Part shown: positions 41,945 to 50,271 of the stretch, in pieces | Layout of the letters: each line of letters opens with the position of its first letter | Numbering within the stretch: position 1 is the first letter of the stretch | From: an uncultured Acidobacteriota bacterium | Lineage (GTDB): Bacteria > Acidobacteriota > Polarisedimenticolia > J045 | Length of the DNA stretch: 64,000 nt | Assembly: GCA_964420365.1 (NCBI GenBank) | Contig: CAYQTA010000094.1 | Span: 100,514 to 164,513, forward strand | Reading direction: 5' to 3' | Position numbers and translations under genes: made by a program | The notes under the pieces: model-generated | What the model was told of the DNA's origin: nothing | Databases searched by the model: none | What the model saw: the letters and a program-made list of their open reading frames with translations, nothing else

Positions 41945-42010
41945 GCGCCCGCGGCGCGCCGTGCGGGTAGAATGACCACGCCCCGCGAACAGAACCCCCG
42001 GAGGAAACCG

Positions 42011-42646
42011 ATGCCTGACCTTCGTCTCGACCGGATCCCGTTCCTGCTCCTCGCTGCCCTGTTCCTGGCCGGCTGCGCGTCCCGGCCGGCGATCGTCGAG
42101 ACGACGATCCCGGCGGCCGAACCTTCCGCCGGCGTCGAGGAAGGCACCGCTCCGACCGGCGGGACACCGGCGAGCGCCGCCCGGGAAGGGGAAGAAAGGG
42201 AGCGCCTCGCCGCGGAGGGTTTCGAGGAGGCCCCCCTGGCGGCCGAGGACCTGCGAGACGAGGAGGCCCGGCTCGCCACGCTGGACGAGAACTCCCTGCG
42301 CCGGATCCTCCGGCCGATCTACTTCGCCTTCGATTCCTCGGCCCTCTCCGAGACGGCGCTGCGCACCCTGGAGCGGAACGCCGCCTGGCTGCGCCAGCAC
42401 CCGGACTGGAAGGTCCGCGTGGAAGGACACTGCGACGAGCGCGGGACCTCCGAGTACAACCTGGCGCTCGGAGCCCGGCGGGCCCGGCGGGTCAAGGAAC
42501 ACCTCGTCCGCCTCGGCATCTCGCCGGAGAGGATCGAGACGATCTCGTACGGCGAGGAACGGCCGGTGGACCCGGGCCACGACGAGGCGGCCTGGTCGAA
42601 GAACCGCCGCGCGGAATTCGTGCTGATCCGCCCGGCCGGGCGCTGA
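42011..42646 (+). CDS. pal: Peptidoglycan-associated lipoprotein Pal (OmpA-family)
   Basis: ORF 41972..42646, from ATG 42011 (ribosome-binding site GGAGGAAACC): [24 protein letters not shown] (lipobox), then ...[11 protein letters not shown]...[22 protein letters not shown] (OmpA_C). Confidence 0.85.
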
Positions 42647-42660
42647 GGAGGACCCGGACG

Positions 42661-43557
42661 ATGCGTGCCCCCACCGCGGGAACCCTCTGCCTCGCCGCCT
42701 CCCTCGGGCTCTTCGCCGCCGGCTGCGCCACGACGATGCCGGGCGCCGCGCCCGCCGCCGACTCCGCGGAGATCCGGGACCAGCTGTTCAAGCTACAGAA
42801 GGACTCGGCCCGGATCCTCGCGCGCGTGGAGACCCTGGCGGAGGAGTCTTCCGGGGACCGCTCCAACCCCGCCTGTGCCGAGGCCGCCACGAAGGTCGAC
42901 GACCTGGCAACCGAGATTCGCGCCCTCGAGGAGCAGGTGCTCGCCACCCAGCGGCGGCTGGACGAGCTGTTCAGCGAGGTCCGGGCCCTGCGCCGGACCG
43001 CTCCCGCCGGCTGGGCCGCGGCCCCCCCCGCCGCGACTCCCGGGGGAACGGCCGGCGGGGCGGCGGGGGCCAGTCCTTCCGCCACCGGGGAGGTGCCCGG
43101 GGAGACCGCCGCGGGCGGCAGCGGGGAGACCGCCGCGCGGGCGGGCACGACCGGCCCGGAAACCCCGGAGGAGAGCCCGGTGGACGTGTTCAACCGGGCC
43201 TACGCGGACTTCTCCCAGGGCCACTACGAGCTGGCCCTGGCCGGTTTCCAGCGGGTGCTGCAGCTCGACCCGAACGGTCCCCTCTCCGACGACGCCCAGT
43301 ACTGGATCGGAGAAACGTACTACGCGATGCAGAAGTACCCCGAGGCGGCCGCGGCATTCGATCACCTGATCTCGGCCTGGCCCCGCTCGGACCACCTGCG
43401 GGCGGCCCACCTGAAGAAAGGGCTCGCGCTGTTCGAGGGGCGGCGGACGACCGAGGGGGCGATCGAGCTCCAGGAGCTGATCGAGACCTGGCCCGGCTCC
43501 GACGAGGCACGGATCGCCGAGGACTACCTGAAGCGCAAGGGCATCCTCCAGGACTGA
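42661..43557 (+). CDS. cpoB: Tol-Pal system protein CpoB/YbgF (coiled coil plus TPR)
   Basis: 298 aa: a signal or lipoprotein-like N-terminus (LFAAGCAT), a coiled coil (...IRALEEQVLATQRRLDEL...), an Ala/Gly linker, and a C-terminal TPR (FNRAYADFSQGHYELALAGF...AQYWIGETYYAM...). Confidence 0.75.
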   Translation: MRAPTAGTLCLAASLGLFAAGCATTMPGAAPAADSAEIRDQLFKLQKDSARILARVETLAEESSGDRSNPACAEAATKVDDLATEIRALEEQVLATQRRLDELFSEVRALRRTAPAGWAAAPPAATPGGTAGGAAGASPSATGEVPGETAAGGSGETAARAGTTGPETPEESPVDVFNRAYADFSQGHYELALAGFQRVLQLDPNGPLSDDAQYWIGETYYAMQKYPEAAAAFDHLISAWPRSDHLRAAHLKKGLALFEGRRTTEGAIELQELIETWPGSDEARIAEDYLKRKGILQD

Positions 43558-43652
43558 GCCCCCGGGCGCCCGGGTGCGCCGGCTGCCCGGATCGTGGCAG
43601 AATCCCGGGTCGCCCCGGCCGGGGGAGACCCGGCCGTCCCTGGAGGGGAACG

Positions 43653-46600
43653 ATGCCCTACGCCCGACCGCGCGGCGAACACCGCTTCGCCGAGACCGAG
43701 CGCCGCATCCTCGAGTTCTGGAAGGAGAAGGACGTCTTCCGCCGCTCCCTCGCCCTGCGGGAAGGCGGTCCCCGGTTCGTCTTCTACGAGGGTCCGCCGA
43801 CCGCCAACGGCCTGCCGCACAACGGCCACGTCCTGACCCGGGTGATCAAGGACCTGTTTCCCCGCTTCCGGGCGATGCGCGGGTACGACGTGCCGCGGAA
43901 GGCCGGCTGGGACACCCATGGCCTCCCGGTGGAGGTCGAGGTCGAGAAGGAGCTCGGCATCCACGGCAAGGACGAGATCGAGCGGTACGGCGTCGAGCCG
44001 TTCACGAAGCGGTGCATCGAGTCGGTCTTCCGCTACACCGAGGAGTGGGAGCGGTTGACCGAGCGGATCGGGTTCTGGATCGACCTCTCCGCCGCCTACG
44101 TCACGTTCCATCGTTCCTACGTCGAGTCGGTCTGGTGGGCGCTCTCGGAACTGCACCGGAAGGGTCTCCTCTACCGGGGTCACAAGGTCGTCTGGTGGTG
44201 GCCCCAGGGGGGCACGGCTCTCTCCTCCGCCGAGGTCGGGCTCGGCTACCGGGAGGTCGACGATCCGGAGGTGATCGTCCGCTTCCGCAGCCGCTCCCGC
44301 CCGGGGGTCAGCTACCTCGCATGGACGACCACCCCCTGGACCCTGCCGAGCAACGTCGCCCTCGCGGTCCGACCCGACATGGACTACGTGCTGGCCGAGG
44401 TGGACGACGGCTCGGGCGGGAGGGAGCGGGTCATCGTCGCCGCCTCCCTGGCCGAGCAGGTGCTCGCCGGGAAGGAATGGCGCGAGCTCGAGCGGTTCCC
44501 CGGGCGGGCCCTCGTCGGAGAGGCGTACGAGCCCCTCTTCCGCTACGCGGAGCCCGCGGGGGGAAAGGCGTACGAGATCCTGGCCGCCGACTTCGTCGGG
44601 GCCGACCAGGGAACCGGGATCGTCCACGTGGCGCCCGCCTTCGGCGAGGACGATTTCCGTGTCGCCCGCGAGAACGGGTTCGGCTTCCTCCAGCTCCTGC
44701 AGGAGGACGGGACCTTCCCGCCCGAGGTCACCGACTTCGCCGGCCGCTACTGCAAGGAGGCGGACCGGGACATCGTCCGGCTCCTCCGGGCACGGGGAGC
44801 GGTCTTCCGCGAGGGAACGTACCGGCACGACTACCCGTTCTGCTGGCGGGCCAAGGACGACCCGCTGATCCAGTTCGCCCGGCCCGCCTGGTTCATCCGG
44901 ACGACCGCGCTGATCGACCGGGCGATCGAGAACAACCGGGCCGTCAACTGGCTGCCGGAGAACATCCGCGAGGGCCGCTTCGGCGACTTCCTGCGGAACA
45001 ACGTCGACTGGGCCCTGTCCCGGGAACGCTACTGGGGCACCCCCCTGCCGATCTGGACCTGCTCCGGGTGCGGACGCGAGGTCGCCCTCGACCGGCTGGA
45101 GGCCGCCCTCGAGCGGAACCCGGAGGCCCTCGCGCACTGGAAGGAAGCCGTCCGGGAGGATCCCTCCCTCAGCGAACACCTGGTGGTCCACAAGCCGTGG
45201 GTCGACCGGGTCACCTTCCCCTGTCCCGGGTGCGGCGGCGAGATGCGGCGGGTCCCCGAGGTGATCGACTGCTGGTTCGACTCCGGCTGCATGCCGTTCG
45301 CCCAGTTCGGGTTTCCCCACCGCGGCCGGGAGGAGTTCCTTCGCTCGTTCCCGGCGGACTTCATCTCGGAAGCGATCGACCAGACCAGGGGCTGGTTCTA
45401 CTCCCTGCTGATGATCTCCACGCTGGTCTTCGACGAGGAGACCCAGCGCCGCTACGGCTTCGACCCACCCCGGCCCTACCCGCATCCCTACCGGACCTGC
45501 ATCGTCCTCGGCCACGTGTGCGACCCGGAGGGCAAGAAGGAATCGAAGAGCTCCGGCAACTACACGCCGCCCGACCTCGTGCTCGAGGGTTCGTTCCGCC
45601 TGGTGGTCGCTCCGCCCGAACGGCTCCCCGATCCCCCGCCGGGCGACGCCATCGTCCTCCTCCCCGCCCAGGTGAAAACCCTTTCCCTGCCGGCCGACGC
45701 GCGGGTCCGTCTCCGGAACCCGGCCTCCCCCGACCGGGTGACCGAGGCCCGCATCATCCCGGGCCCCGCCGGCAAGGAGGCCGTCGTCCTGGGGGACGAG
45801 GTCCGGGCGGCCCTCGGGATCGTGCCCGGCCAGCCGGTGGTCCTCGAGGTCCTCGACGATCCCCCGGGGGCGGACGCCTTCCGGTGGTTCTTCTACGCCT
45901 CCGGGCCACCCTGGAACAACACGCGCAATTCCCTGCGGGCGATCCGCGAGCGGCAGAACGAGTTCCTCGTCCGGTGGGCGAACGTCCTTCACTTCTTCCT
46001 CATCTACGCGTCGATCGACGGGTTCGACCCGGCCCGGGGCAACCCCCTCCGGGGCGGCGGGCTGCCCCCGTTCGACGCGGGAGAGGGGTACCGGCCGGCG
46101 GGGGAACGCTCGCGGATGGACCGCTGGATCCTATCCGAGACCGCCCTGCTCCAGCGCGAGGTGACCGGTCACCTGGAGGCCTACCGGGTTTTCGAGGCCG
46201 CCCGGGCCCTCGAGCGGTTCGTCGACGGCCTCTCCAACTGGTACGTCCGGCGCTCCCGTGCCCGCTTCTGGGCGGCGGGAATGGAGCAGGACAAGCGGGA
46301 CGCCTTCTGGACCCTCTGGGAGGTCCTGGTCCGCCTCGCCCAGGTGGCGGCGCCCTTCGTCCCCTTCTTCGCCGAGCACTGCTGGCAGACCCTCGTCCTC
46401 GGCGCCTGGCCGGGAGCGGACCCGGACAGCGTCCACCTCGCCGACTGGCCCGAGCTGCCCGGGTCGTGGATCGACCGCGAGCTTTCCCGCGCGATGGCCC
46501 TCGCCCGGGAAGCGGTCTCCCTCGGGTTGTCCGCCCGGGCGTCCGCCCGGATCCGCGTCCGGCAACCCCTGCGCGGCGCCCGGGTCTTCGTCGCGCGCGA

Positions 46601-47228
46601 GGAGGACCGGGATGCCCTCGCCGCGCTCGCCGAGGTGGTCGCCGAGGAGCTGAACGTCCGGCAGGTCGAGGTGGGCGGCGACGCGGAGCGGTTCGTCACC
46701 TGGAAGGTCACGCCCAACTTCCGCGCGATCGGTCCGCGCTACGGGAAACTGGTCCCCGGGATCAAGAAGACCCTCCTCTCCGCCGATGGTGCCGCCCTGC
46801 GCCGGCAACTCGACGAGCACGGCCGGATCCGGCTCGAGGTCGCGGGGGAGCAGGTCGAGCTCGGGCCGGACGAGGTCCAGGTGGTCCTCCAGCCCCGCGA
46901 GGGATTCGCGGCGGCCGGGTCGCCACGGGTCGTCGTGGTCCTGGACACCGAGCTCGACGAGGAGCTGGTCCGGGAAGGGCTGGCCCGGGAGCTGATCAAC
47001 CGGATCCAGTCGTTCCGCAAGGACCTCGACCTCGACTACGTCGACAGGATCCGCGTCCGGGTCACGGGCGACGACGAGATCGCGGCGGTCGTCGCGGCCC
47101 ACGGGGACCTGGTCGCCCGGGAAACCCTCGCGGTCGAGCTGGCGCCGGGGGAACCCGAGCCCGGGATGGAGACCCGCGAGGTCGACCTGGCCGGCCACGC
47201 CGCCCGGATCGGGCTCGCGCGGGCCTGA
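43653..47228 (+). CDS. ileS: Isoleucyl-tRNA synthetase (type-2 / eukaryote-like form) with an extra ~90-aa segment after the KMSKS-like motif
   Basis: 1191 aa: ...FYEGPPTANGLPHNGHV (HIGH region)...WTTTPWTLPSN...CPGCGG...WFDSG...GKKESKSSGNY (KMSKS-like)...GADAFRWFFY... Confidence 0.95.
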   Translation: MPYARPRGEHRFAETERRILEFWKEKDVFRRSLALREGGPRFVFYEGPPTANGLPHNGHVLTRVIKDLFPRFRAMRGYDVPRKAGWDTHGLPVEVEVEKELGIHGKDEIERYGVEPFTKRCIESVFRYTEEWERLTERIGFWIDLSAAYVTFHRSYVESVWWALSELHRKGLLYRGHKVVWWWPQGGTALSSAEVGLGYREVDDPEVIVRFRSRSRPGVSYLAWTTTPWTLPSNVALAVRPDMDYVLAEVDDGSGGRERVIVAASLAEQVLAGKEWRELERFPGRALVGEAYEPLFRYAEPAGGKAYEILAADFVGADQGTGIVHVAPAFGEDDFRVARENGFGFLQLLQEDGTFPPEVTDFAGRYCKEADRDIVRLLRARGAVFREGTYRHDYPFCWRAKDDPLIQFARPAWFIRTTALIDRAIENNRAVNWLPENIREGRFGDFLRNNVDWALSRERYWGTPLPIWTCSGCGREVALDRLEAALERNPEALAHWKEAVREDPSLSEHLVVHKPWVDRVTFPCPGCGGEMRRVPEVIDCWFDSGCMPFAQFGFPHRGREEFLRSFPADFISEAIDQTRGWFYSLLMISTLVFDEETQRRYGFDPPRPYPHPYRTCIVLGHVCDPEGKKESKSSGNYTPPDLVLEGSFRLVVAPPERLPDPPPGDAIVLLPAQVKTLSLPADARVRLRNPASPDRVTEARIIPGPAGKEAVVLGDEVRAALGIVPGQPVVLEVLDDPPGADAFRWFFYASGPPWNNTRNSLRAIRERQNEFLVRWANVLHFFLIYASIDGFDPARGNPLRGGGLPPFDAGEGYRPAGERSRMDRWILSETALLQREVTGHLEAYRVFEAARALERFVDGLSNWYVRRSRARFWAAGMEQDKRDAFWTLWEVLVRLAQVAAPFVPFFAEHCWQTLVLGAWPGADPDSVHLADWPELPGSWIDRELSRAMALAREAVSLGLSARASARIRVRQPLRGARVFVAREEDRDALAALAEVVAEELNVRQVEVGGDAERFVTWKVTPNFRAIGPRYGKLVPGIKKTLLSADGAALRRQLDEHGRIRLEVAGEQVELGPDEVQVVLQPREGFAAAGSPRVVVVLDTELDEELVREGLARELINRIQSFRKDLDLDYVDRIRVRVTGDDEIAAVVAAHGDLVARETLAVELAPGEPEPGMETREVDLAGHAARIGLARA

Positions 47229-47701: not shown

Positions 47702-49096
<1,395 letters not shown>

Positions 49097-49698: not shown

Positions 49699-50271
49699 TC
49701 CCCCACCATGGAACTTCCCCGCGGACCGAGACGACGGGACCTCGCCCTCGCCGGCGGGTGGCTCCTGCTCGACCAGGCGACCAAGTTCGTGGCCGAGCGG
49801 GCCTTCGCCGAGCCGGTGACGGTGGTCCCCCACTGCCTGCGCTTCGCCCTCAGCCACAACCGGGGGGCGCTCTTCGGGTTCCTCGCCGCGGCGCCCGACC
49901 CGTGGCGGGGAATGCTCCTCACCGTGCTGCCGGTGCTGGCGATCGCCGGGATCGCCTGGCTCCTCCTTCGCGCGCCGCTCCACGAGCGCTACGGCCGGAT
50001 CGGCCTCGCCCTGATCCTCGGCGGGGCGGCGGGCAACGTGATCGATCGGCTCCTCCACGGGCACGTGATCGACTTCATCGACGTCTACGCCGGCTGGGAG
50101 GCAATCGGACGTCCCCTCGTGCGCCTCCTCGGAACGAACCGCTGGCCCACCTTCAACGTCGCCGACATCGGGCTCACCTGCGGCGCGGCCCTGCTCTTCT
50201 TCGAGGTCTTTCTCCGCCGGTCCCCCCGGGACGGCGGGGACGAGGGAGACGGTGTTTCCGTACCTCGTTGA
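49699..50271 (+). CDS. lspA: Lipoprotein signal peptidase (signal peptidase II)
   Basis: C-terminal part of ORF 48736..50271, from ATG 49699: ...LLLDQATKFVAER...ALSHNRGALFGF...GNVIDRLLHGHVIDFIDV...FNVADIGLTCGAALL (LspA conserved Asn/Asp motifs). Confidence 0.85.
   Translation, partial: SPTMELPRGPRRRDLALAGGWLLLDQATKFVAERAFAEPVTVVPHCLRFALSHNRGALFGFLAAAPDPWRGMLLTVLPVLAIAGIAWLLLRAPLHERYGRIGLALILGGAAGNVIDRLLHGHVIDFIDVYAGWEAIGRPLVRLLGTNRWPTFNVADIGLTCGAALLFFEVFLRRSPRDGGDEGDGVSVPR

Follow-up and report, generated by a model that had tools for sequence, protein, structure and literature searches.

What is a compact, β-rich segment of some 90 residues doing beside the catalytic loop of an isoleucyl-tRNA synthetase (IleRS)? 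The question is raised by the ileS gene of an uncultured Acidobacteriota bacterium (GenBank assembly GCA_964420365.1, contig CAYQTA010000094.1), which lies in a stretch of 64,000 nucleotides that we refer to as the window. The gene (43653..47228, forward strand) encodes a type-2 enzyme (IleRS2) of 1191 residues, as identified from its open reading frame and its matches in Pfam and the PDB. A first-pass annotation, made from the sequence alone, had proposed that this enzyme carries an extra module after its KMSKS-type motif. We found that the module is an ancient nested-domain insertion in an otherwise complete enzyme. It occupies a loop on the protein surface, bounded on one side by the KMSKS hairpin and on the other by the GADA(F)RW helix, which leads to the anticodon-binding region. 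As to its structural identity, it is almost certainly a double-psi β-barrel of the type found in the N-domains of Cdc48 and VAT. The explanation that we favour overall, which combines this nested insertion with a role as a modulator of the synthetase, is on balance probable.

A 92-residue insertion in a type-2 IleRS

The evidence for an insertion comes from comparison with solved structures. When IleS was searched with phmmer against all PDB chains, the best match was the IleRS2 chain 8c8v_A (E=1e-274, 917 bits), and this match splits in two: IleS residues 13-643 align to residues 11-605 of the chain, and residues 739-1166 to residues 609-1008. At the site of the break, about 95 residues of IleS stand against 3 in 8c8v. 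An identical break was observed in the alignments to all other solved IleRS of both types, and the Pfam tRNA-synt_1 model likewise spans the inserted segment. Translation of positions 45591-45866 (forward strand) yields exactly the 92 residues quoted at first pass (SFRLVV...LEVLDDPP, residues 647-738), in frame and without stops as had been stated. The GADA-x-RW helix normally begins within about 14 residues after the KMSKS hairpin. In the window IleS, the distance from the first lysine of K-x-S-K-S to GAD is 110 residues, and the start of the helix (GADAFRW, 45867..45887, forward strand) aligns with GADALRW at residue 609 of 8c8v. The original estimate of roughly 90 additional residues before GADAFRW was therefore essentially right. 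The possibility that the segment belongs to the ordinary connective region of IleRS2 was rejected because every solved IleRS lacks the segment and aligns straight across the site.

We also considered whether the segment could be a product of assembly or another type of genetic element. No significant direct repeats or duplications were found within the ileS DNA, and the GC content of the inserted segment (0.75) falls within the gene-wide range (0.66-0.76), so the segment was not duplicated during assembly and is not foreign in composition. These results eliminate an assembly or tandem duplication, which had been named beforehand as a finding that would overturn the observation, as well as a compositional anomaly hinting at recent transfer. 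An intein was rejected too. The first-pass annotation had reported that intein termini are absent at both ends, and this is correct for the C-terminal end, which reads LDDPP instead of ending in His-Asn and is followed by Gly at position +1, but not for the N-terminal end, since the segment does begin with a serine (S647). Its conclusion that the segment is not an intein was nevertheless borne out, as the fold is a double-psi β-barrel and not HINT. In addition, no intein or HINT match was detected when IleS was searched with Pfam, and a length of 92 residues is, to our knowledge, below that of any mini-intein.

The assignment of the host enzyme to IleRS2 is supported by several lines of evidence. 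Pfam detected tRNA-synt_1 (E=2.9e-107), Anticodon_1 and a C-terminal DUF5915 (E=5.8e-47). In the phmmer search, the Thermus thermophilus IleRS 1ile matched with E=1e-221 and the IleRS1 representative 1ffy much more weakly (E=1e-85, 291 bits). IleS is thus nearer to IleRS2 than to IleRS1, and it shows the type-2 C-terminal organisation, without the zinc-binding domain of IleRS1. The CP1 editing domain is present, with IleS residues 197-395 aligning to the T. thermophilus editing domain 1wk8 (E=2.3e-38). Both motifs that characterise the class I HUP/Rossmann catalytic domain were found: the HIGH-type signature reads H-N-G-H (residues 56-59, 43818..43829, forward strand), and the KMSKS-type signature reads K-E-S-K-S (residues 629-633, 45537..45551, forward strand), a deviation that had already been picked up at first pass. 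H56, N57, G58 and H59, as well as K629, E630, S631, K632 and S633, are invariant in an alignment of 85 sequences, and HNGH was found in all 117 relatives scored. Within the connective peptide, two Cys-x-x-Cys pairs (CSGCG around residue 470 and CPGCGG around residue 524; window 45051-45245, residues ~467-531) gave weak zinc-finger matches in Pfam. These pairs align with the CxxC pairs of 8c8v, and on that alignment we take them to be the usual zinc-binding knuckles of this region. A long open reading frame on the opposite strand (43524..45992) overlaps ileS and is the usual shadow reading frame of GC-rich DNA.

Fold and attachment of the inserted domain

The first reading had described the segment as a small, β-rich module, and structure prediction gave this description a definite form, that of an autonomously folding domain. 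An AlphaFold2 model of the insert, built on an alignment of inserts, reached a predicted local distance difference test score (pLDDT) of 92.3 and a predicted template modelling score (pTM) of 0.82. It shows six strands arranged in two β-β-α-β halves (β1-β2-α1-β3 and β4-β5-α2-β6) that form a pseudo-twofold barrel. DSSP places the strands at insert positions 3-8, 22-25, 40-45, 48-59, 66-69 and 84-89, and the helices at 27-32 and 71-77. In the numbering of IleS, the strands comprise residues 647-652, 666-669, 684-689, 692-703, 710-713 and 728-732, and the helices residues 671-677 and 715-721. Upon structural superposition, the insert model significantly matched bona fide double-psi β-barrel domains, and its nearest fold neighbours were the adaptor-binding N-domains of AAA+ ATPases. 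Sequence identity to the structural neighbours is 17-23%. Aligning one half of the barrel to the other revealed no duplication at the sequence level (local alignment score of 27, against a shuffle mean of 27.2), indicating that the pseudo-symmetry is structural only.

The relationship to known families is remote in sequence. We scanned 41 homologous inserts against Pfam and obtained matches, all of them below threshold, to Molydop_binding (16 members, best E=5e-5), CDC48_N (12 members, best E=9e-5), MazE/AbrB (11 members) and DUF1905 (8 members); Molydop_binding, CDC48_N and MazE are cradle-loop barrel families. For the isolated window insert, a scan that had been suggested at first pass, the outcome was less informative than for its homologues: the best match was MazE_antitoxin (E=0.04), no family reached its threshold, and there was no match to CDC48_N at E<=1, with a gathering threshold of 35.1 bits for that family. 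The relation to CDC48_N is accordingly one of remote homology or shared fold rather than of membership in the Pfam family. The likeness extends to the Nn subdomain of Cdc48/p97/VCP and archaeal VAT (CDC48_N, PF02359), which is a double-psi barrel as well, but not to a complete N-domain of these proteins. All 92 residues are used by the barrel, there is no β-clam (Nc), and IleS, which has no AAA+ ATPase domain, provides synthetase sequence on both flanks, so that the barrel is nested in the enzyme.

The manner in which the barrel is connected to the enzyme was examined in a model of the full-length protein (AlphaFold2, 85-sequence alignment; pLDDT 88.7, pTM 0.80), which repeats the secondary-structure elements of the barrel. 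Ten-residue blocks over residues 641-740, covering the barrel and its linkers, have pLDDT values of 87-96, and the blocks of the KESKS loop (621-640) have values of 81-86. Strand 1 begins two residues past ...PPDLVLEG, and four residues (DDPP) separate the end of the last strand from GADAFRW, so neither linker exceeds four residues. Such short linkers, along with the high confidence of the model, suggest that the barrel is held rigidly beside the mobile catalytic loop. It is thus predicted to be a rigidly attached domain at the foot of the mobile KMSKS hairpin, on the C-terminal side. As a separate observation on the same model, pLDDT dropped below 50 only at residues 179-198 and 397-409, the hinge strands that join the editing domain to the core, which is consistent with a mobile editing domain.

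Distribution and evolution of the barrel

A word-indexed homology search with the insert alone returned no match, because the index does not reach a domain this divergent; close relatives were recovered by using full-length IleS as the query. We surveyed the distance between motifs in the 120 closest homologues, 119 of which are near-full-length. All 120 have KESKS, whether or not they bear the barrel. The barrel-less sequences (35/119, ~1070 residues long) have 19 residues from K-x-S-K-S to GAD, versus 102-144 in the 82 barrel-bearing sequences that were scored; three further sequences bear the insert and have a variant GAD motif. Where the barrel would be, the barrel-less sister enzymes have a linker of 2-4 residues (e.g. 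...PPDLIL-DS-DGADAM...). The insert varies between 87 and 129 residues across lineages. It measures ~95 residues in Acidobacteriota metagenome-assembled genomes (MAGs), whose enzymes share 67-74% overall identity with the window IleS, ~115 in cultured Myxococcus, Corallococcus and Pyxidicoccus, ~117 in Sorangium, ~114 in Planctomycetes MAGs and 87-93 in a further group.

The survey of related genomes proposed at first pass was extended to a GTDB set in which a single genome stands for each species, and this set was scanned with the patterns PGADAFRW and Dx[EDT]G[KR]KESKS. At least 552 species representatives encode a relative of IleS, and the best 80 of them all span the insert, including complete Sorangium chromosomes and MAGs labelled Planctomycetota and Gemmatimonadota. 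Complete carrier genomes include NC_021658.1 and CP070706.1. This KESKS/barrel IleRS is thus shared by hundreds of species of soil and water, and its carriers belong for the most part to soil and sediment lineages. When 1.84 billion cluster representatives were searched exhaustively with a profile, all IleRS-type matches with the barrel had KESKS and/or GADAFRW, which confines the domain to a single clade of IleRS2. The insertion is therefore lineage-specific, as had been anticipated, though not peculiar to this genome. In public databases, the barrel-bearing proteins are annotated only as isoleucine--tRNA ligase. Among the records, we noticed seven loci (L014, L019, L040, L042, L061, L062 and L073) from MAGs titled Klebsiella pneumoniae, Bifidobacterium breve or 'uncultured Enterobacterales' that encode a barrel-bearing KESKS IleRS. 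The enzyme is otherwise Myxococcota-like, and these labels or bins are probably wrong.

In a tree of the enzyme core from which the insert had been masked, the barrel-less sequences form a single clade and the barrel-bearing sequences two large groups. After rooting on 8C8V, monophyly of the barrel-less sequences was recovered in 100 of 100 bootstraps, and that of the barrel-bearing sequences in 35 of 100. Because the barrel-less state is found in one clade, there has been at most one loss over a very long history. This topology is compatible with a single ancient gain and also with a gain that a single loss followed, and it does not call for repeated gains.

The barrel changes faster than the rest of the enzyme. 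Within Acidobacteriota, identity is 51-61% in the barrel and 70-75% in the remainder of the protein. In nine comparisons of the window gene with an acidobacterial locus, the ratio of non-synonymous to synonymous substitution rates (dN/dS) was 0.21-0.56 in the barrel and 0.13-0.32 elsewhere; these values are approximate, with dS near saturation. Their direction is clear and points to purifying selection on the barrel that is more relaxed than on the core, the barrel evolving ~1.5-2 times faster at non-synonymous sites. All inserts can be aligned, and the near-invariant elements are two Leu-Gly turns, one at the end of each short helix. What is conserved in 41 non-redundant inserts amounts to the hydrophobic residues lining the barrel, these two turns, a Pro-Pro junction and, directly ahead of strand 5, one residue (K708 in IleS) that is basic in 98% of them. 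In the same set, we did not find a catalytic-looking constellation, a conserved basic face or a conserved surface patch in the barrel.

Other features of the clade differ in how they relate to the insertion. The change of Met to Glu at the second position of KMSKS is a clade-wide variant, and since KESKS is also present in the barrel-less sister enzymes it is a signature of the clade, so we rejected a link between this motif and the insertion. We found no paper describing a KESKS synthetase motif in a literature search that reached few subscription journals. A second feature is a conserved loop extension of ~11-12 residues (ETQRRYGFDPPR, residues ~596-607, 45438..45473, forward strand), located between the DQTRGWFY helix and the strand leading into KESKS. 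The stretch from DQTRGWF to KESKS measures 57-59 residues in 81 of 84 barrel-bearing enzymes and 47 in most barrel-less ones. The extension carries the conserved motif FDEETQxxxGLxxxR (T in 52/57, Q in 56/57, G in 53/57 and R in 54/57 sequences), is better conserved than the barrel itself and is modelled in the full-length protein with pLDDT 93-95 and a short helix at 595-600. Its co-occurrence with the barrel would suggest that the two pack together. Finally, enzymes with the barrel have Phe at the fifth position of GADA-x-RW, where those without it mostly have Met.

Regarding the genomic context, ileS is preceded by genes for a Pal-like lipoprotein of the OmpA family (41972-42646) and a CpoB-like TPR protein (42661-43557), and followed by genes for an NtrC-like, sigma-54-dependent response regulator (47702-49096) and LspA (~49708-50271). 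Classically, ileS and lspA occur together in a housekeeping arrangement; here, the response regulator gene separates the two and breaks the classical pairing. The position of ileS near lspA and tol-pal-like genes fits a housekeeping role. Together with the intact catalytic motifs and the editing domain, the synteny with lspA suggests that IleS is a working, and probably the primary, IleRS.

Possible roles of the barrel

The conservation pattern, limited to core hydrophobics, the Leu-Gly turns, one basic residue and the Pro-Pro junction, suggests that the barrel is a non-catalytic module at the base of the KMSKS hairpin. Class I synthetases rely on the opening and closing of the KMSKS loop to activate and transfer the amino acid, which makes a platform that tunes this loop the most economical reading. 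The barrel and the 11-residue loop extension would form an extra sub-structure at the hairpin base, and this platform would tune how the loop opens and closes, how the acceptor arm of the tRNA docks on the stem-contact side, or both. The outcome would be a lineage-specific kinetic modulator of aminoacylation, acting in a manner analogous to the leucine-specific domain of bacterial leucyl-tRNA synthetase (LeuRS). An effect on catalysis or regulation had been suggested at first pass, and we propose this mechanism, which was derived from the analyses above, as plausible but tentative.

Several observations weigh against it. The placement of the barrel was read from the pLDDT of the model. Identity of the barrel between groups is only 22-31%, compared with 58% for the core, and its surface is poorly conserved across lineages. 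Its net charge is neutral to acidic, with group means of -1.6 to -4.8 (+2 in one sequence pair), and this charge together with the variable surface argues against a conserved RNA-binding face. The existence of a KESKS sister clade without the barrel indicates that the domain is dispensable for the basic reaction. A subclade comprising P0092, P0110 and P0116 has the barrel without the loop extension, so their coupling is not obligatory, and the statistics of their co-occurrence are phylogenetically confounded, as they rest on one or two events.

Known synthetase insertions provide partial precedents for a modulator. The leucine-specific domain of bacterial LeuRS is likewise a compact, lineage-specific insert in the second half of the class Ia fold that adjoins the KMSKS loop, and it influences aminoacylation and editing although none of the catalytic residues come from it. 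It differs in lying N-terminal of the loop, the IleS barrel being C-terminal, and in its fold, and no homology is implied. Within IleRS2, the INS subdomain is an insertion of ~80 residues in ARD2 that has been gained and lost across lineages, contacts the D-loop of the tRNA and tunes the rate of aminoacylation (bioRxiv 10.64898/2026.02.03.703510). INS resembles the barrel in being an optional inserted subdomain of IleRS2 of ~80-90 residues, but it is found in the C-terminal anticodon-recognition region, whereas the barrel sits in the catalytic domain. We rejected an identity of the two on these grounds, as residues 647-738 lie between the KMSKS hairpin and the GADA-RW helix and not in ARD2. 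A survey of 96,219 IleRS sequences lists HUP, CP1, CP2, ED, ARD1-3, ZBD and INS, and nothing after KMSKS (bioRxiv 10.64898/2026.02.03.703510). The closest solved host, the Priestia megaterium IleRS2 8C8V, shares enzyme type and domain order with IleS; it differs in having KMSKS instead of KESKS and 3 residues at the barrel site, and in lacking the extra loop of ~15 residues before the KMSKS strand.

Outside IleRS, the nearest relatives of the barrel among the 1.84 billion representatives were tandem CDC48_N-type barrels on GCS2-like ligase proteins (such as P0121, P0122 and P0133), the first of which (L081:6001-8778) matched the barrel profile with a whole-protein E=2.6e-27 over 5 repeats. These proteins have an N-terminal ligase to which the barrels are appended C-terminally in arrays of 2-5, in contrast to the single, nested barrel of IleS. 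The conserved gene cluster at loci L081-L083 encodes Tubulin_2, GCS2, GATase_4, CDC48_N fused to a transglutaminase core, CDC48_N fused to VWA, a response regulator and a sigma-54 activator. It has the look of a peptide-modification or conflict system, as yet uncharacterised, in which several proteins have the barrel as a module in common.

Such relatives are one reason to consider that the barrel could instead be a protein- or peptide-binding adaptor, as in the N-domains of Cdc48, p97 and VAT, serving regulation, complex assembly or moonlighting without contact to the tRNA or the catalytic loop. Their recurrence on several enzymes of one gene cluster resembles the use of a shared targeting module, the closest fold neighbours of the insert bind adaptors, and the neutral to acidic charge and lineage-variable surface would suit co-evolving protein partners better than RNA. 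However, N-domains of the Cdc48 type bind mainly in the cleft between barrel and β-clam, and the latter is absent here. The surface of the barrel, as described, offers no conserved patch, and a conserved partner gene beside ileS was not evident in the 64-kb window. This is the most credible of the alternatives, and we regard it as unlikely.

Next comes the possibility that the barrel is a near-neutral passenger, a stable domain captured once in a permissive loop and kept because its removal would be structurally costly. The sister clade functions without it, and the excess of non-synonymous change relative to the core, the restriction of conservation to positions that maintain the fold and the variation in insert length between lineages (87-129 residues) are all in keeping with such an origin. 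Yet the barrel has been kept undisrupted over several phyla in the at least 552 species representatives, dN/dS was below 1 in all nine comparisons, and the barrel-less state, confined to a single clade (100/100), allows for one loss at most. The accompanying loop extension, moreover, is more conserved than the barrel. Taken together, a passenger appears improbable to us.

We find it very unlikely that the barrel is a shield against inhibitors, in which it would reshape, together with the KESKS loop, the HIGH/KMSKS cleft where inhibitors such as mupirocin bind and so add resistance in soil bacteria. The predominance of soil and sediment lineages among the carriers and the attachment of the barrel at the C-terminal end of the KMSKS-type loop are compatible with this idea. 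Nevertheless, IleRS2 is already mupirocin-tolerant without a barrel (PMC10485003), the HIGH motif is canonical H-x-G-H and not the hyper-resistance [A/G]XHH variant, and the insertion lies at the far end of the hairpin and not in the cleft. Lastly, an artefact or an element of another kind (intein, mobile-element remnant, assembly duplication or ordinary connective region) is practically out of the question, because against the initial Ser, a possible first residue of an intein, stand the missing His-Asn end, the +1 Gly, the barrel fold, the lack of any repeat or composition break and the recurrence of the insertion in hundreds of independent assemblies, including complete genomes.

Returning to the nested barrel as a modulator, we asked how far it departs from what has been described. 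The double-psi barrel is not listed in the AARS Online table of shared synthetase domain superfamilies. A literature search covering the insertion itself (myxobacterial IleRS included), double-psi or cradle-loop barrels in synthetases and additional IleRS domains retrieved no description, with few subscription journals covered. IleS is hence a known enzyme with an apparently undescribed nested domain, whose fold appears to be new to synthetases. It is not categorically new, given that lineage-specific insertions are familiar in this group of enzymes.

The insertion would add a fold to the synthetase repertoire as well as a new site for nested domains. A rigid folded domain at the end of the KMSKS loop, in a clade that has exchanged Met for Glu in the motif, also constitutes an unusual natural experiment on loop dynamics. 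The system is tractable, as cultured and genetically accessible Myxococcus and Sorangium carry the barrel and the barrel-less sister enzymes offer a natural deletion design. If the barrel only tunes kinetics, it would be a neat but modest addition to the lineage-specific insertions of synthetases. A bolder version, which we hold to be rather improbable, is that the barrel acts as an allosteric or regulatory handle on the KMSKS loop and gates loop closure by binding a partner, be it another protein, a peptide or the tRNA at its inner corner. In Acidobacteriota, Myxococcota and related phyla, the charging of isoleucine would in this way be linked to a cellular signal. Were this the case, IleS would be the first aminoacyl-tRNA synthetase to have taken up an adaptor domain of the Cdc48-N type, and the barrel would be the bacterial equivalent of the regulatory domains added to eukaryotic synthetases.

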